A stretch of DNA of 64,000 nt, taken from NCBI GenBank assembly GCA_024233595.1, contig JACKPK010000001.1:153260-217259 (forward strand), given 5' to 3'. The DNA is from Deltaproteobacteria bacterium (GTDB lineage: Bacteria; UBA10199; JADGCS01). This document shows positions 2,798 through 45,117 of the stretch, in pieces. The translations under genes were made by a program, and so were the position numbers. The notes beneath the pieces are model-generated. The model did not search any database. It saw only the letters and a program-made list of their open reading frames with translations, and had not been told where the DNA came from. Within the stretch, counting starts at the first letter, position 1; every line of letters begins with the position of its first letter.

Positions 2798-2875
2798 AAG
2801 AACTCACCTACCTTGCTCATTAGAGAGATTATTATAGGACAAAATCAGAGGTAAAGCAGCAAAAATACGGTTAAC

Positions 2876-11177: not shown

Positions 11178-11222
11178 GCGCTCATCATGTGCTCTCACTG
11201 TGCAAAGGTCAAGCTTGAAGGC

Positions 11223-12176
<954 letters not shown>

Positions 12177-12187
12177 CTATTTTTAAA

Positions 12188-27217: not shown

Positions 27218-27225
27218 ATAAACAC

Positions 27226-27492
27226 CTACCCAATGTAGTCGCTAAAGCTTCCTAGGAGCGAGGACGCGTACTCAATGAGCAAGGCAAAACCAACCTGACC
27301 CAGCAAGGCAAGCACCAAGATGATGCACACAAGCTTAGGCACAAAAGTAAGCGTTTGTTCCTGCACCTGAGTGGTGGCTTGAATAATACTGACCGTGAGT
27401 CCCACAACCAACGCTGTGATCACGGGTGGTGCCGAAAGAATCAACACCAAATACAAACCTTGCTTAGCGACCGAGACAATATATGTATCCAT
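27226..27492 (-). CDS. sctS: T3SS export gate SctS (FliQ/EscS family)
   Basis: LSAPPVITALVVGLTVSIIQATTQVQEQTLTFVPKL. Confidence 0.94.
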   Translation of the reverse strand: MDTYIVSVAKQGLYLVLILSAPPVITALVVGLTVSIIQATTQVQEQTLTFVPKLVCIILVLALLGQVGFALLIEYASSLLGSFSDYIG

Positions 27493-27517
27493 AATTTTTC
27501 CTTTTGTAAGGCAAAGC

Positions 27518-28285
27518 TTAAACGTAGGCTTTGACCAAACCTTCTGTGATCAAATACCAGCCATCCGCCAACACAAAGAGCAAAAGCTTAAGTGGTAACG
27601 ATACCGTGATGGGCGAAACCTGAAACATACCCAGCGATAGCAAAATATTGGAAACCACCATGTCGATGATCAAAAAGGGCAAAAAGATAATGAACCCGAT
27701 TTGAAATGCCTCAGTGAGCTCACTGACCACAAAGGCTGGGATGAGCACCATAAAATCGTACTGCTCCAATCCCCCTAAGATGTCGTTGATTTTAAGTTTG
27801 CGACCAATGTCGTAAAAGAGTTTGCGTTCACGCGGGTTGGCGTGTCGTTTTAAAAATTCGCGCACGGGCTCTTTGCCAGCATCAATGGCCTCTTTAAGAA
27901 CATCTATTGATTGCATCGAAATCACTTCTGAGGGCCCGTTTGATTGAATCACCGTGCGTGAGGCATCGTAGGCTTTTTGTCCCACCGGAATCATCACATA
28001 CACTGTGAGAATAAGAGCAAGGCCTGTCACAATTGGGTTGGGAGGAATTTGTTGCGTGCCAATGGCTTGTCGAATGAGTGAAAGCACCACCGCAATTTTA
28101 ACAAATGATGTGGTCATCATTAAAATAAAAGGCGCTAGCGACATGAGAAACAAAACAAAGATCACCAAGACAGGCTTGGAAATCGGTTCGTCTTGCATAT
28201 TGGCGCTCAGTTGCGCAAAAACTGGAGAACTTAATAAAGAGCAAAATAGAAAAACTAAGAGCGATCCCCATTTTTTTCGAATCAT
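27518..28285 (-). CDS. sctR: T3SS export gate SctR (FliP/EscR family) with an N-terminal signal-like peptide
   Basis: MMTTSFVKIAVVLSLIRQAIGTQQIPPN, PAFVVSELTEAFQIGF, PFLIIDMVVSNIL, LPLKLLLFVLADGW. Confidence 0.94.
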   Translation of the reverse strand: MIRKKWGSLLVFLFCSLLSSPVFAQLSANMQDEPISKPVLVIFVLFLMSLAPFILMMTTSFVKIAVVLSLIRQAIGTQQIPPNPIVTGLALILTVYVMIPVGQKAYDASRTVIQSNGPSEVISMQSIDVLKEAIDAGKEPVREFLKRHANPRERKLFYDIGRKLKINDILGGLEQYDFMVLIPAFVVSELTEAFQIGFIIFLPFLIIDMVVSNILLSLGMFQVSPITVSLPLKLLLFVLADGWYLITEGLVKAYV

Positions 28286-28566
28286 TGTGAAACCTCCCAT
28301 TCAGCAAGCTTAGCAACATGATTGTCTGAAATCGCTAAAGCCACTTTTTTATCTTCGATTTGGACCAGGTACACGGCTTTTCGTGGGGCAATGGATTGTC
28401 GGTCTAAAATCTGAATCTTGGAATTGCTATTGCCTTGCGCGCCCGTTAAACGCGGGATCACATACTTGAGAACCAAGAAAGCCCCCACAATGATCACAAT
28501 CATCACAATGGATGTGATCGCAAAATTCCAGCCGTATGATAAATCACTTGCCGCTGCTAATAGCAT
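28282..28566 (-). CDS. FliO-like export-gate chaperone
   Basis: One TM followed by KIQILDRQSIAPRKAVYLVQIEDKKVALAIS, the FliO pattern; coupled to sctR. Confidence 0.75.
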   Translation of the reverse strand: MLLAAASDLSYGWNFAITSIVMIVIIVGAFLVLKYVIPRLTGAQGNSNSKIQILDRQSIAPRKAVYLVQIEDKKVALAISDNHVAKLAEWEVSQ

Positions 28567-28574
28567 GATGCCCC

Positions 28575-29060
28575 TTACTTAACCAACTTGATGACCTTGG
28601 CGCCCAACTTGCCATCAACAACCACAAGCTCTGCCTTGGCAATCAATTTGCCATTGGCCACAAGATCAATGGGGTCTTGCGGCAATTTATCAAATTCCAT
28701 GATCTCGCCTGAACGCACACCCAAAATGTCTTTGAGCTTGAGCGATTTTTTAGCCACAACCGCAGCCAAATGCACAGGCAAGTCCTGAGACAAACCCTTG
28801 GCATAACCTGACAAGTCTTCGGGCTCTGGTTCGGGACGCGCTTTGCTTTCTTTGACTTCTGGTGCAGGCGCAGCTGGCTTTTTAACAGGCGCATCAGCTT
28901 GTGCGGCTGGTGCCGGTGGCTCTTGCGATTCTTGCGCTGCAGGAACAGGATCCTTAGGTGGCAAAGGCTTTTTGTTTTTGACGACTTCACCAGGACCATT
29001 CACGTCTTCTGGGTCCAATCCCAATTCTCTGATTAAATCTTCGTCGAATACGTCATTCAT
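28575..29060 (-). CDS. FliN/SctQ C-terminal SpoA-domain protein
   Basis: Pro/Ala-rich linker, then LKDILGVRSGEIMEF...PIDLVANGKLIAKAELVVVDGKLGAKV. Confidence 0.88.
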   Translation of the reverse strand: MNDVFDEDLIRELGLDPEDVNGPGEVVKNKKPLPPKDPVPAAQESQEPPAPAAQADAPVKKPAAPAPEVKESKARPEPEPEDLSGYAKGLSQDLPVHLAAVVAKKSLKLKDILGVRSGEIMEFDKLPQDPIDLVANGKLIAKAELVVVDGKLGAKVIKLVK

Positions 29061-29072
29061 AGATTCATCTCC

Positions 29073-29993
29073 TTATAGGGCCGAAGTGACCTTGCCCTTC
29101 CATCCTGTGTTTGTTTGTTCAATATTAAGACCAAATCCCTGGCGCTCATTCGGGTCGTTCATAACCAACTCTGCTTTCCCTTGCCAGCCTTTGTGATCCG
29201 CCGAACGCTTAAGATGACCTTCATCAAAAAGGATGACATCACCTTCTTCTAGATCAAAAAAATCCTCTGGTGCCATGGTGGCCTCGGCGACTTCTAAACT
29301 AAAATCCGCTTCTAGGTTGCCAAATTGTTTTAAACGATTTTCTTTAAGAGCTTCTTGGTAATCGTTGGCCGCAAATTGCGAAAGGCTAGCCACTGGTAAG
29401 ATTAATCTTAAAAAGAAATCACGCCCAAATAATTTGAGCATAACCGTGTAAACACCAAATTGCTCATTGTCTTTATAGCGCTCGTGCAAGGACTTTGGGT
29501 TTTTAAAAAGATCTTCAAATTGTAACGAGAAGTTTTTGTGCGAAATGTTTTGTGAAATCTGATCCAGAATAGAAACCAGCAAATACTGCACAACAGCTTC
29601 TTCCATGCTGCTCAAGGGCTTAAGCTGTAAATCAGATATTTTTTTAGGGTCGATGATTTCTCCGGAAACCACCTGATGAGCCAGAGCTTTGGCCAACAAG
29701 GAATCAAAGGTTAGCAAAGCCTGCCCACAATGCGGGTCTATGCGCAAAACAGAAATGAGTGAATCTTTAGGCAAGGAGCCCGCCAGCTCTTCGGATGTGC
29801 GCGCTTCAAAATGAGTGATGCTCAACTGACTTTGTTGTTGGCATATTTTATCGAGCGGCTCAGTGAGGATCTCAAAAAAACGGCTTTGTTTTTCAAAAAA
29901 GAAAAAGGTCTTTAATAATTTTTGATAAAGGGCAGCTTCGGCGCGTGTGTAATGCGTGAGCTCGTTAAATGGAAAATTTTGAATTTCTGCCAT
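29073..29993 (-). CDS. FliM/SctQ-like C-ring (sorting platform) protein
   Basis: LKPLSSMEEAVVQYL middle domain and C-terminal SpoA start (DFFDLEEGDVILFD); position upstream of the FliN-like gene. Confidence 0.75.
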   Translation of the reverse strand: MAEIQNFPFNELTHYTRAEAALYQKLLKTFFFFEKQSRFFEILTEPLDKICQQQSQLSITHFEARTSEELAGSLPKDSLISVLRIDPHCGQALLTFDSLLAKALAHQVVSGEIIDPKKISDLQLKPLSSMEEAVVQYLLVSILDQISQNISHKNFSLQFEDLFKNPKSLHERYKDNEQFGVYTVMLKLFGRDFFLRLILPVASLSQFAANDYQEALKENRLKQFGNLEADFSLEVAEATMAPEDFFDLEEGDVILFDEGHLKRSADHKGWQGKAELVMNDPNERQGFGLNIEQTNTGWKGKVTSAL

Positions 29994-30010
29994 GTCACTT
30001 TCCTAAAATC

Positions 30011-30964
30011 TTAAACCACATCGATGCGCAGCACTTTGATTCCCTTTTTCTTTAACCGCATGTGAACCAAAGGCCTTTGTTTTAAAAACGTGCTTTTAAC
30101 CGCACGATTAGGGCAAAAAAAGCGCAGCACAACACCGTCTTTGGTGCGTTCGGTTGCCACTTTGAGCCCGTCAAAATACTCATCACTCAATTGCACAACA
30201 AACTCTTCTTGACCAGAATCATTCAAACCAAATTCCACCGACGTGATGATTTCGCTCAGGTCTTGTTCGCTAAAATCACGCGCGTTGCGATCAAACCCCT
30301 GGGCGCCAGAACCAAGGCGCTCTCGAATCGCCTTCACGGTGGCCTTTTTAAAGTCGTTTAGAGACTGACCTTTTTGCTGGTTCTGAGAGGAATCGCGCTC
30401 TTTTCCCAAATGACTTTGGCCTTCGCCTGCCGAACCATCGGAACCCGCAAAGCCTCCCGAGGAAGAACCACCATCGCCTTCTGATTTTTCGGCAACACGG
30501 CGGTAGCCTTCGTTCGAAATCTCGCCTTCTTTACGCGATGTTTCGCCCTTTTCGCTGGTTTTAGCCTTAGAAGTCGATTCTGATTTATCGTCTAAACGCT
30601 CTTCGTATTTTTGATTGTCTTCTTTTAAAAACTCTTGTTCTTCTTGATGATGCTCTTCCTGATGTCTGACTTGATCAACATGCGCTTGGTCTAATTCTTT
30701 ATTTTTATCCTTAGCAACACCAATGATTTTATCGAGCAAACCTTGTTTTTCTTCTTTGCTCTTTTTGCTGTCTTTTAATTGCTTGGCAAACTGTGATTGT
30801 GATTTTTGCACTTCGTCTGCGGTTTTCTCAGAAAGCTTGGCTTCAAAAGTCCGCATGGGCTCACGCTCTGCCTTAAGGCGATTCTGCCTTTTGGCTTCCT
30901 GACGGCGTTCATCAACACGCCGTTCTTCATCGCGTTCGCTTCGGTTGTCGTTATTGATTGTCAT
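30011..30964 (-). CDS. SctP/FliK-like length-control protein
   Basis: Charged, disordered N-terminus plus a compact C-terminal domain (EEFVVQL...GLKV...GVVLRF...LKKKGIKV); located after sctO. Confidence 0.7.
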   Translation of the reverse strand: MTINNDNRSERDEERRVDERRQEAKRQNRLKAEREPMRTFEAKLSEKTADEVQKSQSQFAKQLKDSKKSKEEKQGLLDKIIGVAKDKNKELDQAHVDQVRHQEEHHQEEQEFLKEDNQKYEERLDDKSESTSKAKTSEKGETSRKEGEISNEGYRRVAEKSEGDGGSSSGGFAGSDGSAGEGQSHLGKERDSSQNQQKGQSLNDFKKATVKAIRERLGSGAQGFDRNARDFSEQDLSEIITSVEFGLNDSGQEEFVVQLSDEYFDGLKVATERTKDGVVLRFFCPNRAVKSTFLKQRPLVHMRLKKKGIKVLRIDVV

Positions 30965-30967
30965 AAA

Positions 30968-31468
30968 CTATTGGTTTGCCTTGTTCATCTGATGAATGAC
31001 ATTGCCAAGCTCATTCATCTGTTTGTTTTCTTCCATGCTAAGCTGCCGTTGCATTTTTTTATGCCAAAGCTCCTTGTGCTTTTCCATCACGTTCATTTCT
31101 TGTGCCGCAATCACATATTCTCGGCGGCAGCGCTGCACATGCTTTTCGGCGCGCTTGATCTCTTCTTTTTGCTCTTCAATGCGCTCTTCTAGCTCTTCTA
31201 AATCTTCCTTGAGCTTGCGAATAAAATTCAAATGCGTCTGTGGGTCTTTAACCACGGCATCACCAGTGGCGACTTTTTCGCGCATTTCATTGCGTTCTTC
31301 CGCAATGCGTTCTTCGATTTGTTTTTTTTCTTCTTCTAACTTTTTAAGCTTTTCTTTTTCTTCCTCTAGTTGTTTCAAAGCGCGCGCTAGATTAATCTCG
31401 GCCTGCCTTTTGGCGCGTTCTTTGATCACAAGCAAAACTTGCAAGCGGTATTTTTCTTTTTTGGCCAT
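30968..31468 (-). CDS. SctO/FliJ-like coiled-coil stalk protein
   Basis: YRLQVLLVIKERA, long heptad coil, AAQEMNVMEKHKELW; directly after the ATPase. Confidence 0.82.
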   Translation of the reverse strand: MAKKEKYRLQVLLVIKERAKRQAEINLARALKQLEEEKEKLKKLEEEKKQIEERIAEERNEMREKVATGDAVVKDPQTHLNFIRKLKEDLEELEERIEEQKEEIKRAEKHVQRCRREYVIAAQEMNVMEKHKELWHKKMQRQLSMEENKQMNELGNVIHQMNKANQ

Positions 31469-31485
31469 GGCGCTAAAAATTATCC

Positions 31486-32814
31486 TTATTCAAAAAGATC
31501 GATCATTTCTTGGACCGAGTCTTGCAACTCTTCTTTTTCGTCCACTCGTTGTTTTAAAAACTCATTCACAGGCTCAATCATTTCGATCGCGTAATCCACC
31601 GCAGGATTGCTACCCGATTCGTAAGCACCAATTAAAATCAAGTCGCGCTCTTTTTCGTAGTTGGCGACAACCTCTTTGAGTTTACGCGCAGCAAAGTTAT
31701 GTTCTTCACTGACAATGTTGGTCATGACACGCGAAACTGATTCCGAAACATTGATGGCCGGGTAATGCCCTTGATTCGCCAAATCGCGACTCATCACAAT
31801 GTGACCATCTAAAATGGAACGCACTTCATCGGCCACAGGCTCGTTCATGTCATCGCCTTCTACCAACACGGTGTAAAACGCGGTGATCGAACCTTTGTCA
31901 GAGTTACCTGTGCGCTCCAAAAGTTTAGGCAGAGTCGAAAACACTGACGGCGTAAAACCTTGTCGCGCAGGAGGCTCACCAACTGCCAAACCGATTTCAC
32001 GCAGAGCTCTGGCAAAACGTGTGACCGAATCCATCATCAATAAAACTTTTCTGCCTTGATCACGAAAATACTCTGCAATGGCTGTTGCCACATAAGCCGC
32101 TTTGGCACGCACCAAAGAAGGCTGATCTGAGGTTGAGCAAATCACCACACTGCGCTGCAAACCTTCTTCGCCAAGATCATGCTCAATGAAATCACGCAGC
32201 TCTCGTCCCCGTTCACCCACCAGACAGATCACGTTGATTTCGGCTTCGGTGTTTCGCGCAATCATGCCCATTAAGGTTGATTTACCAACACCGGCTGCCG
32301 CAAAGATCCCCACACGCTGACCTTCGCCCGTTGTGAGCATGGCATCAATGGCTTTGACACCAACCGAAATCGGCTGTGTGATGCGTCGTCTTTTTAAAGG
32401 ATCCGGTGGCGTGTTGTTCACCGGGTAATAATCGTCGGGCTCAATAGGCCCTTTGGTGTCGACATCAACTGGATCACCAAGACCATCTAGAACACGGCCG
32501 CGCAATTTATCGCCAACAGGAACGCGCAGACAATCGCCGGTTGGCAAAACATCGTTACCGGGACCAATGCCTTCTAAATCGCCAAGTGGCATGAGCAAAA
32601 CGTCTTTGTCTTTAAAGCCAACAACTTCAGCTTTGATGGTTTTATTAAGATTTTGAATTTGAATGAAACAAAGCTCGCCCACTCGCACATTGGGAACAAC
32701 GGCTTTGACAATGAGGCCTGTGAGTTCTTTGACCTTTCCCTTCACGCGATAAACCGGTGCCCTACGAATAGCCTCGCGCTGCTTCGAAAAATTGATTTCG
32801 GGAAAGCTGATCAC
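31486..32814 (-). CDS. sctN: T3SS ATPase (SctN/FliI family)
   Basis: GIFAAAGVGKST Walker A, VGERGRE, MDSVTRFARA, GEPP, DEVRSILDGHI, HYPAINV. Confidence 0.96.
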   Translation of the reverse strand: MISFPEINFSKQREAIRRAPVYRVKGKVKELTGLIVKAVVPNVRVGELCFIQIQNLNKTIKAEVVGFKDKDVLLMPLGDLEGIGPGNDVLPTGDCLRVPVGDKLRGRVLDGLGDPVDVDTKGPIEPDDYYPVNNTPPDPLKRRRITQPISVGVKAIDAMLTTGEGQRVGIFAAAGVGKSTLMGMIARNTEAEINVICLVGERGRELRDFIEHDLGEEGLQRSVVICSTSDQPSLVRAKAAYVATAIAEYFRDQGRKVLLMMDSVTRFARALREIGLAVGEPPARQGFTPSVFSTLPKLLERTGNSDKGSITAFYTVLVEGDDMNEPVADEVRSILDGHIVMSRDLANQGHYPAINVSESVSRVMTNIVSEEHNFAARKLKEVVANYEKERDLILIGAYESGSNPAVDYAIEMIEPVNEFLKQRVDEKEELQDSVQEMIDLFE

Positions 32815-33491
32815 GAATGCCCTCCCAATGCTTTTTTAATCGCTTCCATTTGCACATCAAAATTAGCATCAATGGTGCCAATTTCTGATTCGATCACACA
32901 ACCATTGGGAGCCACGTTTTCGGAAGGACGAAGTTGAATGGTTTGAATGGCCTGCAAACCTTGCTGCAAAGCTGACTGACGTTCTTTAAGACGCTGGTAG
33001 TCTTCGGGGTTTAAATAGATGATGAGCTCGCTGCCCATAGCCGCATGCAAAGATTGCCGAATCATACTCAAAAACAAATCATCGTCTTTTTTAAGGCCCT
33101 CACCCAAAACCTTGTGAGCGATCTCGTAAACCAAATCCAAGGCTTCGCCTTCGAGCTGTTTTAAATACTCTTGCTTGTCTTTTTCCCAAGCCACTAGTTT
33201 TTGGGTGATCTCAGCATGACCTTCCGCACGGCCTTGCTCATAACCTTTTTCTTTGGCTTCTTTGATTTTTTGTTCGACCTTTAAGTAAACCGATTTAGCG
33301 TGGTCTAAAATTTTAGCGGCGTCTTTGCGAGCTTCCTCTAAAATGCTTTTCACTTTGGAACGCGATGCCATTTCTTCTGCCGAAAGAACCTTGCGCGCCT
33401 TTTCCATTTCGGGCTTGGGCGCCATATCAAATTGCTCTTCGAGTTTAAGCGATTCTTCTAGTTTATCTTTTTTAATGACCTTAGAAGCCAT
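32811..33491 (-). CDS. sctL: SctL/FliH stator protein
   Basis: AKEKGYEQGRAEG repeats, IYLNPED, GCVIESEIGTIDA. Confidence 0.9.
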   Translation of the reverse strand: MASKVIKKDKLEESLKLEEQFDMAPKPEMEKARKVLSAEEMASRSKVKSILEEARKDAAKILDHAKSVYLKVEQKIKEAKEKGYEQGRAEGHAEITQKLVAWEKDKQEYLKQLEGEALDLVYEIAHKVLGEGLKKDDDLFLSMIRQSLHAAMGSELIIYLNPEDYQRLKERQSALQQGLQAIQTIQLRPSENVAPNGCVIESEIGTIDANFDVQMEAIKKALGGHS

Positions 33492-33505
33492 CCCAACTCC
33501 TTCAA

Positions 33506-34444
33506 TTAATTTTGCAACACCGCTGTCATCGCGGCGATCACCTCTTCGCGATAAGCTAAAGCACTGGCCTCTGTGTTACTGCCCATTTGCTCCTGAGCCA
33601 ATTTGCGTAATTGCTTTGCCAAAACCAAAGGGAACATTTTTTCGATGATGCCCAAGTCTGATTCCTCTTTGGCCAAAATAGATTTAGAAAAAACCACAAA
33701 GCCCAGTCCCATCACAAATTCTTTTCCGGACGATTGTTTGTCCTGAGCATCGGATACATTTTGCTGCGCTAATTTGATGCGCTCTGGTGAAACACGGTCT
33801 CCCTTTTTTAAATAATCGGCCACAGCAGAGCGAACCTCGGCGGGAAAGCGTTTGAGCATGATGCTGCGTGTGCCCTCGGGCAAAGTTCTTAAACCCAAAG
33901 ACAATTCGCGGTAACCCAAATTTAAAAACACTTGCTGCACTTTACGCTGCCCAAGCAAAGGCAGGTGATTCATTTCTAGGGTTTCGCCTTTGCGATAAAC
34001 ACGATCGACAGCGAATAGGTTTTCGAAGCGTTGCTGTAACATCAGAAGCAAAATGGGACTCACCGAAAAAGTCTTTTTCATTTTGGGCATCTTGGATGAA
34101 ACCTCTGGAGGCAGGCGATCTAAAATACGTTTGGCGCGATCAACAGGCAAATAACGCAAAACAATCGCCACCATGGCAGGTGATTCTTTAAGTAAAATCT
34201 CGACCAACCAATCGTCATGCACATCGTTTAAATAGGTCTGGCTTTGACGTTTGACCAAACGCATGAGTTCGCTATGCGCCACCGCTTTGATGTTTTCGTG
34301 ACTCAAAGAAGCGATCTGATCGTAAAGCTTTTGTAACTGCGATTTGAGCTGCGTGTTTAGGTACGAAAAATACTGAACCGCGTTTTGCGGGTGGTCTTTG
34401 AGAACCAGTAAAAAGAAGGCTTTGTCACGCAGGGATAAACTCAT
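33506..34444 (-). CDS. FliG-middle-domain-like / SctK-position protein
   Basis: LLKESPAMVAIVLRYLP resembles the FliG EHPQ helix; sits upstream of sctL, where SctK normally lies. Confidence 0.55.
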   Translation of the reverse strand: MSLSLRDKAFFLLVLKDHPQNAVQYFSYLNTQLKSQLQKLYDQIASLSHENIKAVAHSELMRLVKRQSQTYLNDVHDDWLVEILLKESPAMVAIVLRYLPVDRAKRILDRLPPEVSSKMPKMKKTFSVSPILLLMLQQRFENLFAVDRVYRKGETLEMNHLPLLGQRKVQQVFLNLGYRELSLGLRTLPEGTRSIMLKRFPAEVRSAVADYLKKGDRVSPERIKLAQQNVSDAQDKQSSGKEFVMGLGFVVFSKSILAKEESDLGIIEKMFPLVLAKQLRKLAQEQMGSNTEASALAYREEVIAAMTAVLQN

Positions 34445-34545
34445 AATTAATTGTTATTCTTAATGAAAACACCAAATAAGTCCATCACTTAATCCACCCC
34501 GTGGGGCATTTCTTCGCCCTTTGCAAAAAGACCCGAAAGAGCGGC

Positions 34546-35037
34546 TTAAACCTGTTGCTGGAGTACTGTGTTGAGGTTTTGCGAAACCGATTGTGCTAGC
34601 TTAGAGAACATCTCGGTATTGATGGTGAGAGTCCCGATGCTAGCCTGGTAAGCAAGCAATTGTCGACGGCTGACCTTGGTGTTCGATGAGGAAAGCACTT
34701 CGATGATGGAGTCCATTTTGAGCACATCGCTATTCACCTGCGTGAAAAGATTTTGCACCCATTCTTTGCTGCTTCCAGGAACACGACCTGCCAATTCGCC
34801 TTCTGAAATGTTGATTTGGATATCATCAGCAGGAATGGCATTGATTTGATTCAACGCGGGCGATTTGTCTGTGACCGAGCTCGAAAGCTTTTCTAAAAAA
34901 CTATTATCTTGTTTTGTTTTTAAAACATCATCAAAGGATTTTGCGCCTGTTTGACCAGGATTCAATCCACCAGGCTTAAGGTTACTCACCTTTTGAGCCA
35001 GTCTCATATTCAGTTTTTTGATGATGGGATCAGTCAT
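34546..35037 (-). CDS. Putative inner-rod protein (SctI/HrpB2-like)
   Basis: C-terminal LLAYQASIG...EMFSKLAQSVSQNLNTVLQQQ helix pair typical of rod/needle subunits. Confidence 0.55.
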   Translation of the reverse strand: MTDPIIKKLNMRLAQKVSNLKPGGLNPGQTGAKSFDDVLKTKQDNSFLEKLSSSVTDKSPALNQINAIPADDIQINISEGELAGRVPGSSKEWVQNLFTQVNSDVLKMDSIIEVLSSSNTKVSRRQLLAYQASIGTLTINTEMFSKLAQSVSQNLNTVLQQQV

Positions 35038-35056
35038 TGTGTCGTTCCTTAAAAAC

Positions 35057-35842
35057 TTAAGAGAGTTCCTCTTTGTTCATTGTGCTCATGCGTTTGAACA
35101 TTAAATCTAAGGCCCGTGCGTGCAAGCGAGAGGTCCAAGATTTTGATAAATTCAATTGGTCGCCGATCTCTTCCATGGTTTTATTTTGGAAGTAATACAT
35201 TTTAATCAGTTTGCGTTCTTTATCGGGCAATCCTTCAATAGCACCGCAAACTTTTTCTTTAACCTTTTGAAACTCAGCTTTACGCTCAATTTCTTCGTTG
35301 GCTTTTTTATCTTCGACTTCAAAGTCTTCTAAGCTGTCGATGCTCATCACGTAAATCGAAGCCACAGCGTTCACGTCTTTGTTAATGTCGCCAAGCTCTT
35401 TACGGTAAAAGCGCGATTTAGCATCGTCGCGGCCTTCATTGGCTTTTAAGTATTCGTTAGCCGCTTGCTCAAACTTTATTTTAGAGTACAGAGAGCGTGG
35501 AATCCACCCTGTTTTTCGCAAACCATCATAAACAGCGCCTTTAATGCGGTAATAAGCAAATGTTCTAAAATCGACGCCAAACTTTTCATCATAACGCTTA
35601 GCAGCTTCTAACAAGCCCAAACGCGCGTTACAAAGAATGTCATCAAAATCGACTTCTGATGGAAAAGACCGCGCGAGCTTAGCCGCAATCGACGTTGCGT
35701 AAGGAAGATATTGCTCTACCAAAGCATCGCGTTCCGCGTTCACTTCTTGGTTTTCCACCGCGTCTTCTAATAATTCTTGTTTTTGTGTCACAGCCACCTG
35801 CTGCTCTTCTAATCCTAAGTTGTTCTCTTGTATGTCTTGCAT
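35057..35842 (-). CDS. FliA/WhiG-family sigma-28 factor heading the T3SS cluster
   Basis: Region 2 (LVEQYLPYA, GLLEAAKRYD, FAYYRIKGAVYDGLR) and region 4 (LPDKERKLIKMYY...LSKSWTSRLH); AGGAGG RBS before ATG 35842. Confidence 0.92.
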   Translation of the reverse strand: MQDIQENNLGLEEQQVAVTQKQELLEDAVENQEVNAERDALVEQYLPYATSIAAKLARSFPSEVDFDDILCNARLGLLEAAKRYDEKFGVDFRTFAYYRIKGAVYDGLRKTGWIPRSLYSKIKFEQAANEYLKANEGRDDAKSRFYRKELGDINKDVNAVASIYVMSIDSLEDFEVEDKKANEEIERKAEFQKVKEKVCGAIEGLPDKERKLIKMYYFQNKTMEEIGDQLNLSKSWTSRLHARALDLMFKRMSTMNKEELS

Positions 35843-36234
35843 CTGGCCTCCTTTTTCACGAACACACCTAGTAAAAGCAGAGACCATGCCAATTTGTGAC
35901 GAAGAACGCGGATTTTCTTATTTTTTTTGATTTCAAACGAAATCAGTCAAAAATAACAAATAAAAACAAAAGCTTAAAAAACAAGCTCACCAAAGACCCA
36001 ACAGCCTCTTGGTGGCTTTGGGGCAGAAAACAACGATGATCATTGAGGTTTTTCGGGGGATTCGTCCCCCAGTCCCAGGGGGAACTGTCCCAAGTGTGGG
36101 ACTGGTGAGACAGCATTTGTCCAAATTTTTTAACTCAAGGTTGCAAAAACCCGGTAATATAGAAGTCTCGCTTTGCGATGGAATTTGGAAGACGGAGTCA
36201 ATTGAAATAAGGTAAAAACGGAAGACGGAGTAAA

Positions 36235-36996
36235 ATGTACCGAATGCCAAAGACAATCCATCCGTTGGATTTTCCAGATGATTTTTCGACCACACGCGAG
36301 GGTTTGCTCGCCGTTGGCGGAAATCTGCACCCAATCACCATCATCAATGCTTACGCCAAAGGGATTTTTCCTTGGTTCAATGACGACGACCCCATTTTAT
36401 GGTGGCACCCTCACCCACGCATGATCATTCCTCCGTCTGCGGTGCACATCAGCAAAAAAATGAAGAAGCTTTTGAACAAAACCGCCTTGCGGCCTTGTTT
36501 TGAACCGGGGCGTGACGAGCTTTACCAAATCACGCTGAACCAAGATTTTATGCGGGTCATCAACGAATGCGCCAACAAACGGGACAAGAACCGCACCGAC
36601 ACCTGGATCACAGACGAAATGGCATCCACTTACATCACCTTGCACGAAATGGGTTTTGCTCATTCGGTTGAGGTTTGGAATCAAAATGGCGAATTGGTGG
36701 GTGGTGTTTATGGCGTGGCCATTGGCAAAGCCTTTTTTGGCGAATCCATGTTCAGCCACGAAACAAACACATCGAAGCTAGCCTTGATTCATCTTTGCCA
36801 ATTCATCGATCAACAGGGCTTCACATTGCTCGACTGCCAAATTGAAAACCCTCATCTGGTGACCCTGGGTGGTAAAAACATCGCACGCTCTAAGTTTTTA
36901 AAATTATTGAATCAGGCCGAGACAAACCTCAAACAACCTTCTTTGGCCTTTCCCAGCCACCAAACCTTGCGGCAAGTTTCTTCAGCCGGTGCATAA
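36235..36996 (+). CDS. aat: Leucyl/phenylalanyl-tRNA--protein transferase
   Basis: GLLAVGGNL, AYAKGIFPWF, ILWWHP, TWIT, AHSVEVW, GGVYGV, FFGESMFS, DCQ. Confidence 0.95.
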   Translation: MYRMPKTIHPLDFPDDFSTTREGLLAVGGNLHPITIINAYAKGIFPWFNDDDPILWWHPHPRMIIPPSAVHISKKMKKLLNKTALRPCFEPGRDELYQITLNQDFMRVINECANKRDKNRTDTWITDEMASTYITLHEMGFAHSVEVWNQNGELVGGVYGVAIGKAFFGESMFSHETNTSKLALIHLCQFIDQQGFTLLDCQIENPHLVTLGGKNIARSKFLKLLNQAETNLKQPSLAFPSHQTLRQVSSAGA

Positions 36997-37073
36997 AATT
37001 GAACCCCTTAGCACGCCCAAAAGCGTTCTGTTCCTAAACCACAGGATTTTCACACCAAACAGGGGACGCTTTT

Positions 37074-37440
37074 ATGAAGGTCATCTTACGCATCATTTTA
37101 CTCTTAATGAGTTTGTTTATTATTCTTACCGGCACACCGGCTTATGCCCATGTGTTTTTTGATGGCGACACCGAATGGGACGCGTCTCAAATTCTTCTCA
37201 CGGATATCAATGGCAATGATGATTTTGATCTGATTGTGAGCTTCCCAAGCTGGAGCGAGGAAGCCAATGAGAATGGCGCGGTGTTTGTTTTATAGATGCT
37301 GAAAACTTTAGCGAACTGATTCAGATGATGCCGATTATTTGGTTTTGGGCGAAACGACGACGCGCATCTTGGACAAAGCATAACGCTGATAGACGACATG
37401 GATGATGAGGATTCCCTGGACAGGAAATGAGTGAATGATA
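37074..37440 (+). pseudogene. FG-GAP/integrin-like repeat protein remnant
   Basis: Signal peptide, DINGNDDFDLIVSFP...NGAVFV, stop, then LGQSITLIDDMD in a downstream frame. Confidence 0.55.
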
Positions 37441-37564
37441 GCGAAACTGAAATCATCAACTCGCGCACCTGGTCTGTTATGCCTTGAAAAAAATCGCGTG
37501 AACGACTCAGAAACACATGCAGCGGTTTATGAGTGTGAATGTCGGCGTGGTCACGATGTGGATC

Positions 37565-40267
37565 TCACTGAACCAAGAAAAACCCAGGGTTTAACACAGG
37601 TTGGTTGGTGATTTGGGAACGCTCTTCTGTTATTTTTTGCCTGAACAACGGCGTGGCAAACATCAATGATCGATTAATAACATTTGGTAGTATTCTAAAT
37701 CCGCAATGTGCTCTGAATAAATTTTGTCCGAGCAATGCTACGATGCCGGCGCGTGGCGTCTTCGGTTTATTTCTATTGAACGCCCTGCTTTTTAAAATAG
37801 CTTCCATTTTCTCGCAGATAAAAACAACCGGTCATGAGGTGTCATTGCGAAGGAAAATCTGCGTGACTAAACTCAAAGGCTTCTTGCTAACAGACAAATT
37901 GTCTTCATTAAAATCATAAACCTCTAACAAGAGGTAAAGAGATTCTACAAGAGACTGGCTGTATGATTTGAGCCATTAAATTTTGAACAAAAGTCTGGAT
38001 TAATTTACAGGTCTTCGCTAACTGAATATAATCAATGCGCTCCAAAACTATTTTAAATCAATGAGCCAATTGCCAGGATGACCATCGGGATCAAAAACAC
38101 TGCATTTTCAAAACTTTGAGTTCCGCTTCAAAAATTTCCCGTGCGACACCTTGCTGCAACACTTTATCATTAGAAGCAAGCCTTGTGTATTAATGAGTTT
38201 GCTAAATCGCCACTTCTTTCTTCACTTTGTATGATAACAACTGTACTCTATTAAGGGCGTGCCACGTTAACTGAAAACTGTCGCCCATTGCCAGCAGCGC
38301 GCTGCATAGCTTGCCTGCATCATCATACGACGATTCATACTCCAGATTCAGCTCGACGCCGTCTTTGAGACAGAGTCGCCGCGCATGAGATCGTGCTTCA
38401 TCAATCATGCGAAACACGCCGCACTTCAGGCTCAGCATTTTCGGATAACGCAGAAAGCGCCTTGATCCAAATGCGATTTTCAAGGCAATCATTGGTTCAG
38501 CGTTTCATAGCAAACAATTGCCGCTTCTTGCGGCTCGGTCTCACCCATTCTTAAGGCTGCATGGATGCCTCCATAACAAAATTCCGGAACCGGACCAAGC
38601 AAATCACCAGAATAGTGCACTAACAAATCTTTGCCAAAGCAGCCTCAGAAGATCCATGATCTACCCCAAAAAGGCAGCAACGCAATGTCAAATAGGCATA
38701 TCCAGTTCAACTCTGGTTTCAGGCATTCACCATACACTGGTGCGAGAATCTGCTTAACCTTGATCTAAAGGCCCATATGGCTTCTAAAATGGTTTGAGCC
38801 TAGGTTGTTTGTCTTGCTATCGGCCATAGGCTAAAATGTAACCAGAATCTGCGCTGAGCAAGCCACAGGCATAAGATGGGCGTGAAAAAATTGATCTAAA
38901 AATAGTTTCATCTGCATATTTTCCAAGCACCAGATAACGCCAAATCAGTCGCTAATTCCGAATCTGATAACACACCCTGGTTTTCGTCGATCAGAGGCTG
39001 CATAGTGTACATGCGCGCGTGAATTGCGCCTCGTTAAAAGCACTTGCTCTCGCTGTTGCACGGTATTCGCTTGGCGAAATCTTATTTTCTCCATTTTCTA
39101 CAGAAAAGCGCTTTTAAGTTAGAATATCCCACTTGCACCTAGTAAACGAATAACAGCAAGCCTGTGATAATTATTAAACAACCTCATTCATTTTTGATGA
39201 ACAAGGTCAGCAATACCAATTGACGGTTTTTGCAATTATCCTGATTGATTTTTCTTTGATCTAAGAACAGTTTCTGCAAAACTACAAAGATTTTTGCTAC
39301 AGAGTTTCAATACATCATTCTTAAGAATGCAGGGTTTAGGAAGCATTTCATCTAATGTCACTGCAAGAGCTTGAACAAAAGGTCTTATTTCCTCTACCTT
39401 TGGCCTGTTGCGTTCTCTCTTTCTAACCTCATCTTCTAAACTTGAAATGTCATGAAACTGATCCAACTGCCATAAAATGAATTGTTTTTTATTTTCTTCT
39501 TAAAACAATCTCTTGTGGAAATCTGTAACCAACAAGTTTTTCTTTTCTTCTAACATCTTCAATTTTTCCCCAAATGAATTCAAAAGCTCGTCACTTGCTT
39601 TCGAAGAATCGAATACCCTAACAGTAACAACAAATAACCGCAACAGCTCATCGGCAGAGAGTTGTTGCCAAAAACCTATCAAAGGCCATTTCCTTAAAAT
39701 CAGAAACAGAAATAATTTAATCCTGCCATTAATTGTTAACGCTATCTATATTTTTCTCACGACCTTGATCGAAGAACATCGACCATGGTCAAATAGAGCT
39801 ACAAACAGTCTTTTGTAGAAATTTTTGATTATAAAAACATTTAAATCATCAGCAAAATCATCAACAGCAGATCAAAATTTGGCATCTTAACACCATTGAA
39901 AAATCTCTTAGGTAAGAGATAAATTGATACTTATCAAATTCATCAGAAAGTCCTTGATAAAACCCATCCAATACTCAAACGCTCACTTGTAAGCGAGTCG
40001 ATGCCTATGATTAAATTTTTAGAGAGTTGCTCAGTTCGTAAACCTTTGGTTGTCTTTAGGATTGCAAACAACAGCTTGTAGCGCAAACACGGCATCTTTG
40101 TATTGATTAATTTGGAGCCAATCACAAACGAAAAATCAAAGCAACATCATCTTGAGTCAATTCTCCATTTTCCGGTCTCTGCATGCTTGAAACTTTGGTT
40201 CTAGATACGTGTCTTTAAACAAAACAAAGTTCAAAAAACCTTGCTGCCCTGCTCTATAGAGCTGATG
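37565..40267 (-). pseudogene. Indel-broken coding region with ABC1/AarF/UbiB kinase motifs, probably the 3' half of the upstream M48 gene
   Basis: Ordered motifs across frames: IKVKQILA (38764-38741), IALKI (38489-38475), ELNLEYE (38354-38334), DPDGHPGNW (38092-38066), IDY (38036-38028). Confidence 0.6.
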
Positions 40268-43015
40268 TTAAAAAGACGTTTCAAGGCATAAAAGATTGAT
40301 TCTCTGACCCACGAGTTTTTGTTTAACTTTGTCTTCAGAAAAATCTTGAAACACCTTTAACAATACTTCATCGGCATATCTATTTTCTGGATCATAGAAA
40401 GCACGTAAATGAGGGGTATTCGCAAATATCAAACCAGCAATTTCTTCATCGCTTAAAACAGTCCCTTGGTCATCAGAAAATAATTCAGCACGTGCATTTT
40501 GAATCACTTCATAAAAAAACCTGTTTTTAATTTTACGAATTTTTTCTTTCAACTCATAAGAATCATGTAGAAAACCGTAAACCTCAAGAGTCGTATAAAA
40601 TTCTCTCAAAACACGTAAACGACCAACATGATCCATAAAAAATTTAGTTGGATCACTTGATCGCTCTTTTTCGTTCTCAAGTTTTGCAGCAAAAAAGATA
40701 TTCATCACTTTTAACAAGAATTCAGGAGTAAAAACCAGTGTCGCAAATTCTTGCGAAAATCTAAACCCCTCAAATCTATCTGTTTCAAAAACAAAAGCCT
40801 CCTCAAATTCATGGAATCGACCATCAAAGCCTATTCCTTTGAATACATTTGCCATCATACTCAAATTTGGGGCTGCTTCTAGGAAATCAATTAAAAAGCT
40901 CTGAATAAGGCTAACCAGACGAACTGGGTCATTTTGAAAAGCCGCAGAAAACAGAATACGCCAACTATCTTTAAGATATTTAAATTCACTGATGTGGTAA
41001 GAAATTACCCAATCGCGTTTTTCAGGATCGTTTAACGCTTTGGACAAAGACAAAAATACTGTTTCAAGAACTTCAGACGCATTTTCTTTTAATTCATCGG
41101 CATCATCAGAACTCCATCTACTCAGAAAATGAATTAAATCATTAAATTCTATTTCTTCTTTTTTTTCGACTATCCCTCTCACAATGAGATTATCAATATG
41201 ATTAAGCCTTGCCTTATTTCGGCGGCGTAAATCTGGAAAAACAAATTGGGTTTCGTTAATAAGGTTTAAGATGCGCTTGTAATTTTCATTTTCTCTTTCT
41301 AAATCACGGTTAAGGCGCTCTCGTTCAAAATTGGAAAGACGTTCAGAATCTTTCTTCTGTTGAATAGCCCTTCTATCCATGTCTTTTTGATGGAGTCGTT
41401 TTAGTAAGTATTCAATGTCTGCTGGAAAAGATGCAGCCATCAAGTCGTATTCTAATTTTTTTTCTTCGTATGCTCGCTCTAATTCATAAACCTGAGAACG
41501 GAGTTCTTTGGCTTCTTCGGCATCAAACGGTCTAAACAGTTCCTCTTTGTGATTTTGATAATCCGTAACAGCTCTTTCAAATTGAGTCTTAGCTGTACTT
41601 CGCTTGACATAAGCGTCTAAGAGAAATTCTCCATCAAGGCGACCCGAAATATGAGAATTCAATGATCGATAAAGAAGATAATTCCGAATATAACAGTCTC
41701 GCAATAATAAGAGCTCTTGCGTGTTTAATCTGGATAAATCTTGTCCGCCAAGCTCCTCTACAGTTTTCTCAAAGTGTGAATCGAGACAATAATGCAACTC
41801 TAGCTCAAATGCAATGAAGTCCACTTCAGAGATTAATCCAGACAAAAAGGCATGTAATTGTCGCCGTGCTTTATTAAAGCTACTCTTATAAAGCCAATTT
41901 AGGAGAGAATTTCCATGGCCGGTTTTTTCACCTGCTAAAGCTCTTTTTAAAATATCCCCTATCGATAAAGTAACACCAAGATCCCTTAGAAAATTTCTGG
42001 CCCTTTTCACCTGGTGATCTTTAAACCAAGGAGCCTGAACAAAATCTTCTTGTAGACCTCTTGTTAATTCATGGCTGTAATTTTCAGAAATATCTTCGGG
42101 GATCTTTTTATCAAAGACACGATCTGCCATTGTCAAAGCGACATTCACAGCATCTTTACGAGACGATAAACTGGTATGAGACGCACTCAAAAACGAACCA
42201 AATCGATCTATTAGTCTATTATGGAAATGCAATGCTGCATGCGGATTGTGACCATTTTCCAAAACCCGTCGTAACACAGACTTCACATCCACTTCTGTCT
42301 CGACAACACGTTTTAGTCCCCAAAGAATCAGACTATCTGCATTGTATTCTTCCCGCTTTTTTTCTTTCTCAATATAGGCATCAAGCTGAGAAGACCCATG
42401 TTCTAATTCGTGCCCAATCACAAATGCCAGTTCATCATCAGATTGCACAAAACGCAGCAACCCCAAATTAACAGCGACCACTTTATCGCCATTTTGCAAT
42501 TCAACAAAACAAGCATTGATTTCCATTGAATCAACCAAAACAAAATGAATGATAGCAGCGCCATCATCCTCATGACGAATGGATTCGATGAGTTCTCTAG
42601 CTCCTTTATAAAACTCGGTCACAGCGGGCATTGTGTTTTCGGGAACAGCCTTCTGCTCTGTTCTAAAGAGAAACTCATCGATTGTTCCTAAGGTTTGCGT
42701 CTTATTATTTTGACCAGAAGACCGTGCGTGCTTAATTTCTTGAGTCCTATTTTTAGAAGAAGCTAAAGCATCTGGTGTTTGAGCAGGCTCTAAGGTTGCA
42801 TTCCCTTGTGACGACAAAATCAAAGCTGTCGAATTGCCAAAGCGGTTGGCTTGCTTTTGCACAGCAAGAGATTCATCCGCTTTTTTTAATCCCGAACGAG
42901 CATTTAAAAATGAGCCTCTAAATAAAGCTGCCTCCTCTAATTTGATAACAGCAGGAGGCGGCTGTAATCCTGAAAGATAAATGAAGGGACGACTTGGAAG
43001 TTTTCCTAAAACCAA
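40268..43015 (-). CDS. Large M48-family zinc metallopeptidase with a long helical extension
   Basis: EINACF, VNLGLL, DELAFVIGHELEH (HExxH), ETEVD...GHNPHAA; no signal peptide. Confidence 0.85.
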   Translation of the reverse strand: MVLGKLPSRPFIYLSGLQPPPAVIKLEEAALFRGSFLNARSGLKKADESLAVQKQANRFGNSTALILSSQGNATLEPAQTPDALASSKNRTQEIKHARSSGQNNKTQTLGTIDEFLFRTEQKAVPENTMPAVTEFYKGARELIESIRHEDDGAAIIHFVLVDSMEINACFVELQNGDKVVAVNLGLLRFVQSDDELAFVIGHELEHGSSQLDAYIEKEKKREEYNADSLILWGLKRVVETEVDVKSVLRRVLENGHNPHAALHFHNRLIDRFGSFLSASHTSLSSRKDAVNVALTMADRVFDKKIPEDISENYSHELTRGLQEDFVQAPWFKDHQVKRARNFLRDLGVTLSIGDILKRALAGEKTGHGNSLLNWLYKSSFNKARRQLHAFLSGLISEVDFIAFELELHYCLDSHFEKTVEELGGQDLSRLNTQELLLLRDCYIRNYLLYRSLNSHISGRLDGEFLLDAYVKRSTAKTQFERAVTDYQNHKEELFRPFDAEEAKELRSQVYELERAYEEKKLEYDLMAASFPADIEYLLKRLHQKDMDRRAIQQKKDSERLSNFERERLNRDLERENENYKRILNLINETQFVFPDLRRRNKARLNHIDNLIVRGIVEKKEEIEFNDLIHFLSRWSSDDADELKENASEVLETVFLSLSKALNDPEKRDWVISYHISEFKYLKDSWRILFSAAFQNDPVRLVSLIQSFLIDFLEAAPNLSMMANVFKGIGFDGRFHEFEEAFVFETDRFEGFRFSQEFATLVFTPEFLLKVMNIFFAAKLENEKERSSDPTKFFMDHVGRLRVLREFYTTLEVYGFLHDSYELKEKIRKIKNRFFYEVIQNARAELFSDDQGTVLSDEEIAGLIFANTPHLRAFYDPENRYADEVLLKVFQDFSEDKVKQKLVGQRINLLCLETSF

Positions 43016-43211: not shown

Positions 43212-44018
43212 ATGACAAACACCCTCACTGGCATCCTCAAAAAAATGCGCACCGATCGCGATGAGCAATCGGGCCTGATCAATTATCATCTGCGCCTTAG
43301 CGATTCCGAAGAAGCGCTGAACACAGTCGTTGGCAAAAAAATCAAACTGCAATTTGAAGGCGAGATCCATTGCATTCACTGCGATCGTAAAATCAAAAAG
43401 ACCTTTGCACAGGGCTATTGTTACCCTTGTTTTCAAAGCTTAGCCGAAACTGACATGTGCATTGTGAAACCGCATCAATGCCATTTTGCACAAGGGACCT
43501 GTCGCGATGAAGAGTTTGCCAAAAAGCACTGCTTTATTCCTCATGTTGTTTACCTGGCTGTCAGTTCTGGCGCTAAAGTGGGCATCACGCGTGCGCATCA
43601 GAAATTCACGCGTTGGGCAGATCAAGGCGCCATTAAAGCAAGCGTGTTAGCCGAAGTCCCTGACCGAAAAACTGCCGGCGACTTAGAAGTGGCTTTGTCC
43701 GAACACATTGCTGACAAAACCAATTGGCGAAAAATGTTATCAAACCAAGTACCCAGTCTTTCTTTGTCGGAATTAAAAAACGAAATCAAAAACAAAGTGC
43801 CCAAAGAATTTGAACAATTTCTTATAGAAGACGATGTGCACGACCTAAGCTACCCTGTTGAAGTCTTCCCTGAAAAAATTTCATCTTACAACCTCGACAA
43901 AACTCCGGTCATTGAAGACCAACTCATGGGCATTAAAGGACAGTACTTGGTTTTTCCTAAAAAGGTCATCAACCTTAGAAAGTACCAAGGCTACAAAATA
44001 AAGGCGACACTTTCGTAA
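43212..44018 (+). CDS. DUF2797-family Cys-rich protein
   Basis: CIHC, GYCYPCF, CIVKPHQCHF..GTCR, HVVYLAVSSGAKVGITR, WADQGA, GIKGQYL. Confidence 0.8.
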   Translation: MTNTLTGILKKMRTDRDEQSGLINYHLRLSDSEEALNTVVGKKIKLQFEGEIHCIHCDRKIKKTFAQGYCYPCFQSLAETDMCIVKPHQCHFAQGTCRDEEFAKKHCFIPHVVYLAVSSGAKVGITRAHQKFTRWADQGAIKASVLAEVPDRKTAGDLEVALSEHIADKTNWRKMLSNQVPSLSLSELKNEIKNKVPKEFEQFLIEDDVHDLSYPVEVFPEKISSYNLDKTPVIEDQLMGIKGQYLVFPKKVINLRKYQGYKIKATLS

Positions 44019-44069
44019 AATCTTACCATCACCGCAAACGCGTTTTGGTAAAAATCATTGGGGAGTAAA

Positions 44070-44736
44070 ATGGACTTTCAAAAAGCTGATTTAAAAAACA
44101 TCCGTTCTTTCAATGCCCCAGTTTGCGAACCGGAACCCAGCGAATGGCAAGTGCTTGATGGCATCGATTTTAATACCCAAGAAATTGTGGTGGAAGTCGG
44201 CTGCGGCAAAGGCGATTGGGTCTTAGATGCTGCTCTGGAAAATCCAAACAAAACATTCATTGCCATTGAGCGCACAAAAAACAAAAGCGATGCCTTGGTG
44301 AAAAAAGCCAAAAATAAAAAATTAGAAAACCTCTTTTCTCTGCGTGCTGATGCCATTGCACTTTTGAATCAACGCTTTCCCAAAGAAAGCAGACGAGTTG
44401 GTTTTTCTTTACCCAAACCCCACGCCAAAACGACGCCAAGCCAACCAGCGTTTTTTTGTGGGCGCGCAGTTTCAACTTTTAAATTCCCGTCTTAAAACAA
44501 AAGGCCAAATCACCTTGGCCACCAACATTAAAGATTACAAAGACGAAGCCTTAGATCATTTGCAAAAGCTTTGGGGCTACCATGTGCTTTCTGATCGCAG
44601 TTTACCAAGCGACTTTAAAGCCCGCACGGCCTTTGAAAAAAAATACCAAGAGCAAGGCCAAAAGCTTTACGAATTGATTGTGAAAAAATCAGGCGACACG
44701 CCCAAAACATGGTTTCCCTTGGTGTTCGAAAAATAA
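44070..44736 (+). CDS. TrmB-like tRNA (guanine-N7) methyltransferase, frameshifted near 44390
   Basis: VEVGCGKG, IAIER, RADA, FLYPNP, ITLATNIKDY, TAFEKKY split over two frames. Confidence 0.75.
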
Positions 44737-45117
44737 TCACTCAAACACCAATTTATCTTTAATGAGCGCGTAAAATTTTTGTGGCTCTTGCTCATCACAT
44801 TGAAACTTCCACCCAACATGCTCGTTGCACTTGGCGCACCCCAATATGCTCCAAGCATAGCCTGGAAACCAAGAGTACTCAAAACTAGGCTCTGGAATGG
44901 TCATCACGCCCTGGCAAACATTCACGGTGATCAGGTCAAAATGAAACCCTGCGGGATTCAAAAAGCTATGAAAAGGCGAACCCGCATCACCAACGCTACA
45001 CAAATGTGTTTCGTCTGATAGTTCATTAAAACAAGCCGCGCATTTGTAAAAAGCAGAACGCCTTTCTTCTTCTTGGTCTTGTTCGTCGTTTTCGCGTTTA
45101 ATGTGATCAAGTAGCAT
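44737..45117 (-). CDS. Bacterial cereblon-like (CULT domain) protein
   Basis: CAAC and CAKC Zn pairs, NPAG, and SWFPGYAW...HVGWKF with all three cage Trp. Confidence 0.9.
   Translation of the reverse strand: MLLDHIKRENDEQDQEEERRSAFYKCAACFNELSDETHLCSVGDAGSPFHSFLNPAGFHFDLITVNVCQGVMTIPEPSFEYSWFPGYAWSILGCAKCNEHVGWKFQCDEQEPQKFYALIKDKLVFE

Follow-up and report, generated by a model that had tools for sequence, protein, structure and literature searches.

Can a long stretch without open reading frames (ORFs) directly downstream of a protease gene be the remainder of that same gene, and if so, is the gene intact or decayed? We address this question for a locus within a 64,000-nt stretch of DNA from an assembly named Deltaproteobacteria bacterium (GenBank assembly GCA_024233595.1, contig JACKPK010000001.1, positions 153,260 to 217,259 of the forward strand), which we refer to as the window and whose numbering is used throughout. 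At 40268-43015 on the minus strand, the window contains a 915-aa ORF with an M48 zinc-protease domain. A first-pass annotation of the window had noticed that coding-like fragments with motifs of ABC1 kinases continue beyond this ORF in shifting frames, and had proposed one gene of roughly 1,800 codons that joins a protease, a helical spacer and a kinase, hidden by insertions and deletions (indels). Our analysis indicates that the locus probably descends from one ancestral protease-kinase gene of ~1,830 codons, whose 5' half is intact and whose 3' kinase half has become a 2.7-kb pseudogene. Unless stated otherwise, all features of the locus lie on the minus strand.

The ORF ends where the first-pass annotation had placed its end, with a TAA codon at 40268-40270. 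From 40267 down to ~37500, no ORF longer than 96 aa was found in any frame. ORFs of at least 120 codons cover 88.6% of the genome (1.79 Mb, 15 contigs), and the region is among the larger ORF-less gaps in this otherwise well-coded genome. An Rfam scan of 36900-40400 returned two sub-threshold chance matches and no non-coding RNA.

To place the ORF, we compared the 915-aa protein to 93 genomes of the phylum. Its M48 domain was found in intact giant ORFs of 1,833, 1,803 and 2,635 aa in related genomes, and in a further relative in a 1,552-aa ORF whose 5' end is cut by the contig end and which has matches to Pfam M48 as well as Pfam ABC1 (E 7.8e-11). Relatives thus contain intact proteins of the layout that the first-pass annotation had proposed. 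Among 1.84 billion representatives, an exhaustive search with phmmer recovered 102 clusters at 50% identity, with a median length of ~1,720 aa (mostly 1,600-1,950 aa) and, in most clusters, the protease domain near the N-terminus. The layout of the family consists of a BepA-type M48 zinc protease, an alpha-solenoid of ~900 residues and a C-terminal UbiB/ABC1 (COQ8-type) kinase-like domain. Family loci were found in metagenome-assembled genomes (MAGs) labelled Bdellovibrionota, Bacteriovoracaceae, Oligoflexia, Deltaproteobacteria and others (25 loci), and public names of the proteins are restricted to 'hypothetical protein' or 'M48 family metalloprotease'. Our literature searches found no paper describing a protease-kinase fusion, and the family is uncharacterised there. 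The locus in the window is a member of this family, as both of its halves are collinear with the family profile.

The 915-aa ORF makes up the first 45% of the giant ancestor. Its residues 62-908 align to positions 12-772 of a hidden Markov model (HMM) of 24 family members (E 2.4e-111), and the stop codon thus falls in the middle of the protein. The Pfam profile PF01435 matches the ORF with 28.7 bits against a cut-off of 20.3 (E 1.4e-6), covering only profile positions 25-75 of 186. The BepA-type soluble M48 domain was delimited by Pfam, AlphaFold2 (AF2) and Foldseek to residues ~110-300 (42116-42688). Within it, the zinc-binding and catalytic HExxH motif is intact as HELEH (residues 202-206, 42398-42412), followed by ETEVD (residues 239-243, 42287-42301), which represents the invariant E-x-E-x-D block of the family and, by analogy to the 'ExxAD' motif of M48, probably carries the third zinc ligand. 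Both blocks are near-invariant across the family.

The AF2 model of the ORF (predicted template modelling score 0.70) is confident over residues 110-780, where a compact alpha/beta domain precedes a solenoid made up of helices only. The predicted local distance difference test (pLDDT) reaches ~81-98 over the M48 domain, with values above 90 for most of residues 120-350, and is mostly 80-97 over the alpha-solenoid, which spans residues ~300-780 (40676-42115). When the model was compared to the PDB with Foldseek, the only significant matches were BepA (6AIT, E 1e-4) and a Geobacter M48 peptidase (3C37, TMt 0.58); the solenoid gave weak matches only, to HEAT/TPR-like repeat proteins. Profile, zinc motif with acidic block, and modelled fold all place the ORF in Peptidase M48 (PF01435), and proteolysis by its product is predicted.

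The C-terminal domain of the intact family members is UbiB-like in its predicted fold and in profile similarity. Among nine members scanned with Pfam ABC1, one exceeded the cut-off, and four of the five top phmmer matches carry sub-threshold ABC1 matches at their C-termini (E 2e-4 to 2e-3). When the family was aligned with hhalign to the UbiB paralogs of the same genome, the probability was 95.4% over 270 columns. For an intact relative, the domain was modelled with a pLDDT of 86.7, and the ten best PDB matches of this model are all members of the UbiB family, namely MSMEG_1954, COQ8A/ADCK3 and Rv3197 (E 1.5e-10 to 1.6e-7), with ordinary protein kinases far behind. The family consensus retains KxGQ, the GSGS loop, ELD, DPDGHPGNW and IDY. 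At the beta3 position, the family has an arginine (VVVRxxR), which aligns to the lysine of the genome's own UbiB paralog (VVIK). A comparison of the C-terminal alignment profile to PDB sequences returned nothing useful.

We next consider whether this domain is represented in the gap. Frameshift-aware alignment of the 24-member profile matched columns 996-1581 to 39664-37956 with a score of 193.5 and 35% identity to the consensus; this stretch contains the pre-kinase region and the remnant of the UbiB/ABC1-like domain. A 3-member profile scored 151.7, and the null scores, which were measured for this 3-member run, were 28.8 ± 2.8 for 15 dinucleotide shuffles (maximum 36.7), 30.8 ± 3.7 for 14 stretches elsewhere in the window and 32.3 on the opposite strand. 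An HMM of three giant proteins matched the locus in the expected order, with columns 157-327 at 42643-42107, columns 1164-1255 at 39535-39263 (E 5e-6) and columns 1654-1670 (GsfDPDghrGnWlvdle) at 38101-38051 (E 1.2e-5). In an independent genome search with the family profile, 39143-39673 matched model positions 981-1161 (E 2.5e-19) with one TGA and two TAA codons inside, and 38051-38098 matched with E 3.5e-6, so that the remnant totals ~93 bits in two fragments. Furthermore, tblastn with 102 family proteins resulted in dozens of collinear matches, distributed over frames -2, -3 and -1.

The motif strings quoted in the first-pass annotation are present in the DNA, and the KxGQ, ELD, HxDxHPGN and DFG-like motifs all occur in order and at family spacing, over three frames. 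Their counterparts in the family consensus are LEAMGPFGIKAGQFLRTSG, ELDLxxER, FDPDGHPGNWLxD and RLVRIDYAQL. The KxGQ region (38738-38790; family consensus ILEAMGPFGIKAGQFLRTSG) is broken into ILEA at 38779-38790, GPLD at 38763-38774 and IKVKQILAP at 38738-38764, each in a different frame. At 38334-38354, ELNLEYE stands for the consensus ELDLxxER and has the invariant aspartate replaced by asparagine, that is, ELD is now ELN. The best-preserved island is the remnant of the catalytic loop of HxDxHPGN type, SVFDPDGHPGNWLIDLK at 38051-38101, which is up to 100% identical to many members; the string quoted earlier, FDPDGHPGNWLIDLK, lies within it at 38051-38095. The DFG equivalent, ERIDYIQLAK (38013-38042; consensus RLVRIDYAQL), is in a frame that differs from that of the catalytic loop 10 bases upstream. 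One assignment of the first-pass annotation is doubtful: IALKI had been equated with the VAVK motif, whereas the profile alignment puts the VVVRxxR strand at '...EAAI / FAMKR*'.

Between the ORF and the first detectable block of the remnant, the stretch 39665-40267 shows no detectable residue similarity to the family, which is poorly conserved in this region. It contains ~10 stops in the old frame and would represent approximately HMM positions 773-995, as its length is collinear: the 604 nt between the stop of the ORF and the next detectable block fit the ~220 absent profile columns, and the spacing between HMM positions 772 and 996 is conserved to within a few codons. Beyond the kinase-like domain, a decayed C-terminal helical tail occupies 37520-37955, with an approximate end; the alignment of the 3-member profile reaches 37675, and an extrapolation from the family member P0003 places the old stop codon near 37475-37565.

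The remnant is detectable with family-specific profiles and frameshift-aware alignment, but not with Pfam or with BLAST searches based on housekeeping paralogs. The first-pass annotation had named the absence of a significant ABC1 profile match in 37800-38800 as a result that would refute its proposal. PF03109 has no match there in any frame, and judged by this alone the proposal would have been given up; only the family-specific profiles succeed. With Pfam, the three minus-frame translations (stops replaced by X) gave no hmmscan match at E-values up to 10. A whole-genome search with PF03109 reported five other loci, two of them UbiB-type genes and three with weaker matches to kinases, and not the remnant locus. 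With the two UbiB paralogs and three Ser/Thr kinases of the genome as tblastn queries, only chance matches were obtained at the remnant, and columns 320-1180 of the 3-member profile, which correspond to the solenoid, gave null-level scores against the window. The remnant thus has neither a PF03109 match nor an open frame for the domain, with a longest ORF of 96 aa and ~25 lesions on its best path.

These lesions bear on the question whether the organism has an intact gene that only appears broken due to consensus or assembly errors. The best path of the 24-member profile through 37956-39664 requires ~15 frameshifts and 10 stop codons, and the tblastn matches support at least six frame switches. 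In the old reading frame, there are no stops in the first 915 codons, followed by 34 stops, a mixture of TAA, TAG and TGA, in the next ~900 codons. Among the near-invariant columns (conserved in at least 90% of members), 32 of 45 are kept in the remnant and 13 are lost. The lesions end exactly at the boundary of the 915-aa ORF, and the net length of the decayed half is nearly unchanged.

Two observations would fit an intact gene: the nearby trmB gene is split by a single frameshift at a T5 run, so that isolated indel errors in this assembly are conceivable, and some copies of the family in MAGs are split by one or two breaks. The damage in the window is of a different kind. Indels do not account for the ten best-path stops or for the 34 old-frame stops, which comprise all three types and require substitutions; invariant residues such as that of ELD are replaced; the frameshifts do not occur at long homopolymers; and the damage halts at the ORF boundary in a genome of which most is contained in long ORFs. 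Thus, the sequence argues strongly for true decay of the 3' half, and an intact gene disguised by consensus errors is extremely improbable. The proposal of the first-pass annotation, which had left open whether the breaks are real, therefore holds for the ancestor, with its ~1,830 codons, intact relatives and collinearity, but not for the present gene. From the 10 stops in ~570 codons and the ~29% loss at strictly conserved positions, a rough calculation would suggest ~0.1 neutral substitutions per site since inactivation.

Two other explanations of the breaks were rejected. Recoding or read-through does not agree with in-frame stops that are a mix of TAA, TAG and TGA, and homopolymer sequencing errors are unsupported by the contexts of the frameshift sites. 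As a separate observation, the G+C content is 0.44-0.49 in the kinase remnant (38000-38750) and 0.33-0.38 at 39250-41250, which includes part of the intact protease-solenoid ORF; this contrast is the reverse of what AT-biased drift of pseudogenes would lead one to expect.

The 5' half differs from the 3' half in the complete lack of lesions. From 25 lesions per 1.7 kb downstream, ~40 would be predicted for the 2,745-nt ORF, and none is present (Poisson P ~4e-18). In addition, HELEH, ETEVD and eight of the nine near-invariant N-terminal family columns, HExxH included, are kept. On these grounds we infer that selection has almost certainly maintained the protease-solenoid half, now without its kinase part. 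The sequence of events was probably as follows. The ancestral gene, a member of the giant family, ran from 43015 down to ~37500 over ~1,830 codons and was cut after codon 915. The downstream part then drifted as a pseudogene, gaining stops and small indels and losing invariant residues with little net change in length, while the upstream 915 codons stayed open and retained the HExxH and ExExD blocks. Since these codons are open and the catalytic blocks are kept, the organism most likely still produces from them a protease-solenoid protein that lacks the kinase and resembles BepA in architecture; the activity of this product and its location in the cell are predictions.

Several points weigh against this interpretation. 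The TTG start of the ORF is a tentative assignment. The AF2 model is poor at both ends of the ORF (the first ~108 residues, and the last ~130, i.e. residues 785-915). A signal peptide is missing from the 915-aa product, whereas ~60% of the full-length family members start with a signal-like hydrophobic segment; the first-pass annotation was accordingly right about the copy in the window, but its statement does not extend to the family. The number of frameshifts varies with the penalty, from 28 at -10 (3-member profile) to 15 at -12 (24-member profile) and, within a stretch of 430 nt, 2 at -20, and assembly error is discounted by an argument from the sequence alone. Lastly, no close relative was found in JGI metagenome contigs, by look-up of the exact product, in an index of 5.8 billion proteins or in a DNA-level search of 40 relatives.

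Some of these points would suit a scenario in which the whole gene is non-functional, including the 915-aa ORF, and the 5' half has merely not been hit yet: the missing signal peptide, the low-confidence ends of the model and the lack of an orthologue for a test of selection are all compatible with it. If both halves had become neutral simultaneously, the ~40 lesions predicted above should have accumulated in the 5' half, and the catalytic blocks and conserved columns would not be expected to be retained. We thus consider such a scenario quite unlikely.

A further explanation is that the ancestor already contained two adjacent genes, one encoding protease and solenoid and the other solenoid and kinase, of which only the second was lost, so that the two parts never formed one polypeptide in this lineage. 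Broken copies occur commonly in the family, and split versions do exist in other MAGs, with ORFs of 844 and 1,480 aa (L044), 947 and 1,131 aa (L047), 571 and 1,178 aa (L048) and 908, 423 and 315 aa (L045), and this, too, counts against a single ancestral gene. Their breakpoints lie between approximately HMM positions 556 and 1022, several of them near the break of the window at approximately position 772. Yet most family members are single ORFs, including those in the same GTDB family, and the junction in the window contains no spacer, start signal or extra sequence, with the collinear spacing of HMM positions 772 to 996 described above. The split copies may themselves be young pseudogenes or assembly errors, or they may be true two-gene versions. 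An ancestor with two genes is therefore unlikely, and we retain the interpretation of one ancestral gene with a decayed 3' half.

In one of the split copies, L044, the gene of the kinase half (8621-13063 of the ENA contig) has an unrelated N-terminal extension of 183 residues before HMM position 697, and a DDE transposase-associated gene is located near the split member, which suggests that the split followed a rearrangement.

The neighbourhood of the locus was analysed as well. The first-pass annotation had described a type III secretion system cluster ~1.7 kb away and had considered the giant protein a candidate for a large effector. The cluster at 26402-35887 (minus strand) encodes the flagellar export apparatus. 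Proteins labelled FliI in 'Deltaproteobacteria' MAGs share 85-89% identity with its ATPase (31486-32814), and FliG, FliM and a sigma-28-type factor are encoded beside the ATPase. No association with an injectisome was found, and there are no conserved gene neighbours across 27 family loci. As the neighbouring cluster is flagellar and the family has no conserved neighbours, the position of the gene lends no support to an effector role. At L045 1-5775 and 6001-11159, in a Bdellovibrionia MAG, the three-piece giant gene also adjoins a flagellar cluster with FliJ, hook and rod genes; the flagellar proximity common to L045 and the window may be a coincidence. At another family locus, L046, a bAvd-like gene and a reverse transcriptase gene (RVT_1) are present at 2867-4254 within 2 kb of the family member and look like a diversity-generating retroelement, with an HRDC gene and a gene for a 1,076-aa FGE-sulfatase-domain protein upstream.

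The locus in the window is flanked by genes on the plus strand, namely a Leu/Phe-tRNA protein transferase gene (36235-36996) and a DUF2797 gene (43212-44018). Between the former and the remnant, a 73-aa ORF on the plus strand (37074-37295) combines a clear signal peptide with a single FG-GAP repeat (E 2.4e-5) and then ends suddenly. It probably represents what is left of a larger secreted FG-GAP protein, in convergent orientation to the end of the remnant, and the 3.2-kb gap would thus contain the debris of two genes. On the other side, the tRNA (m7G46) methyltransferase-type gene (trmB; Pfam Methyltransf_4) is present at 44058-44736 (plus strand) in two overlapping ORFs. Profile positions 2-87 are found in 44058-44495 and positions 76-173 in 44398-44736, with one frameshift near 44395-44407 beside the T5 run, and the split gene is either a young pseudogene or the result of an assembly indel. 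It is followed at 44737-45117 (minus strand) by a gene for a 126-aa protein with a Yippee/Mis18-type zinc-binding domain (PF03226, E 7e-10), a fold that is better known from eukaryotes.

As a feature of the genome, the locus is mainly a case of ordinary gene decay. What it adds is a lineage that dropped the kinase half and kept the protease-solenoid half, which bears on the question which of the two modules is autonomous. Both modules were compared to known systems. BepA (YfgC of E. coli; 6AIT) and the Geobacter protein 3C37, the top Foldseek matches of the 915-aa model (E 1e-4 to 9e-4, probability 1.0), share with it the soluble M48 fold, with HExxH and an acidic block after it, and a domain of helical repeats C-terminal to the protease. 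The sequence identity is just 13-18%, and the solenoid has ~480 residues or more, compared to ~200 residues in the TPR domain of BepA. Furthermore, the copy in the window lacks a signal peptide and is derived from a larger protein with an additional kinase-like domain.

Kinase-like proteins of the UbiB/ABC1 type occur widely and have medical relevance (COQ8A), and their biochemical role is debated. The C-terminal domain of the family shares with UbiB/ABC1/COQ8A (ADCK3; 4PED, 5I35), Rv3197 and MSMEG_1954 the KxGQ motif (GIKAGQ), a Gly/Ser-rich loop, ELD, the HPGN loop and the DFG-like IDY. It differs in that most family members fall below the Pfam cut-off, in the arginine at beta3 (VVVR) instead of lysine (VVIK), and in its position C-terminal to a protease and a solenoid in one polypeptide that usually starts with an export signal. 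The copy of the domain in the window is a pseudogene without a Pfam match. The joining of a UbiB-like domain to a BepA-type protease, usually with an export signal, is a setting that is absent from the literature searched.

Within the family, the closest parallels are the split copies L044, L045, L047 and L048, where the protease-solenoid part and the kinase part are encoded by different ORFs and the breaks fall within the same central region as in the window. Their kinase parts are well preserved (HMM scores of 245-1,048 bits), whereas the remnant in the window has ~93 bits. It is possible, if rather doubtful, that the locus is a natural domain deletion in which the protease-solenoid half has long been kept alone. 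Together with the at least four split MAGs, this would point to a two-module machine where the M48 protease works without its UbiB-like partner and the kinase fold is a dispensable regulator rather than the catalytic core.

A pairing of the two protein types has been described for plastoglobules and cyanoglobules, where an M48 protease (PGM48 / sll1280) and ABC1 kinases (ABC1K1/3/6) are separate proteins of one structure (PMC8956952; PMC12223511). In comparison to the giant family, this pairing consists of co-localisation only, in the context of photosynthetic lipid droplets, with separate proteins and no solenoid. It is the kind of link that a 'Rosetta stone' fusion would predict, and we regard it as a parallel and a lead, not as evidence. 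If the two-module interpretation were true, it would strengthen the 'Rosetta stone' link between the M48 proteases and the ABC1 kinases on plastoglobules.

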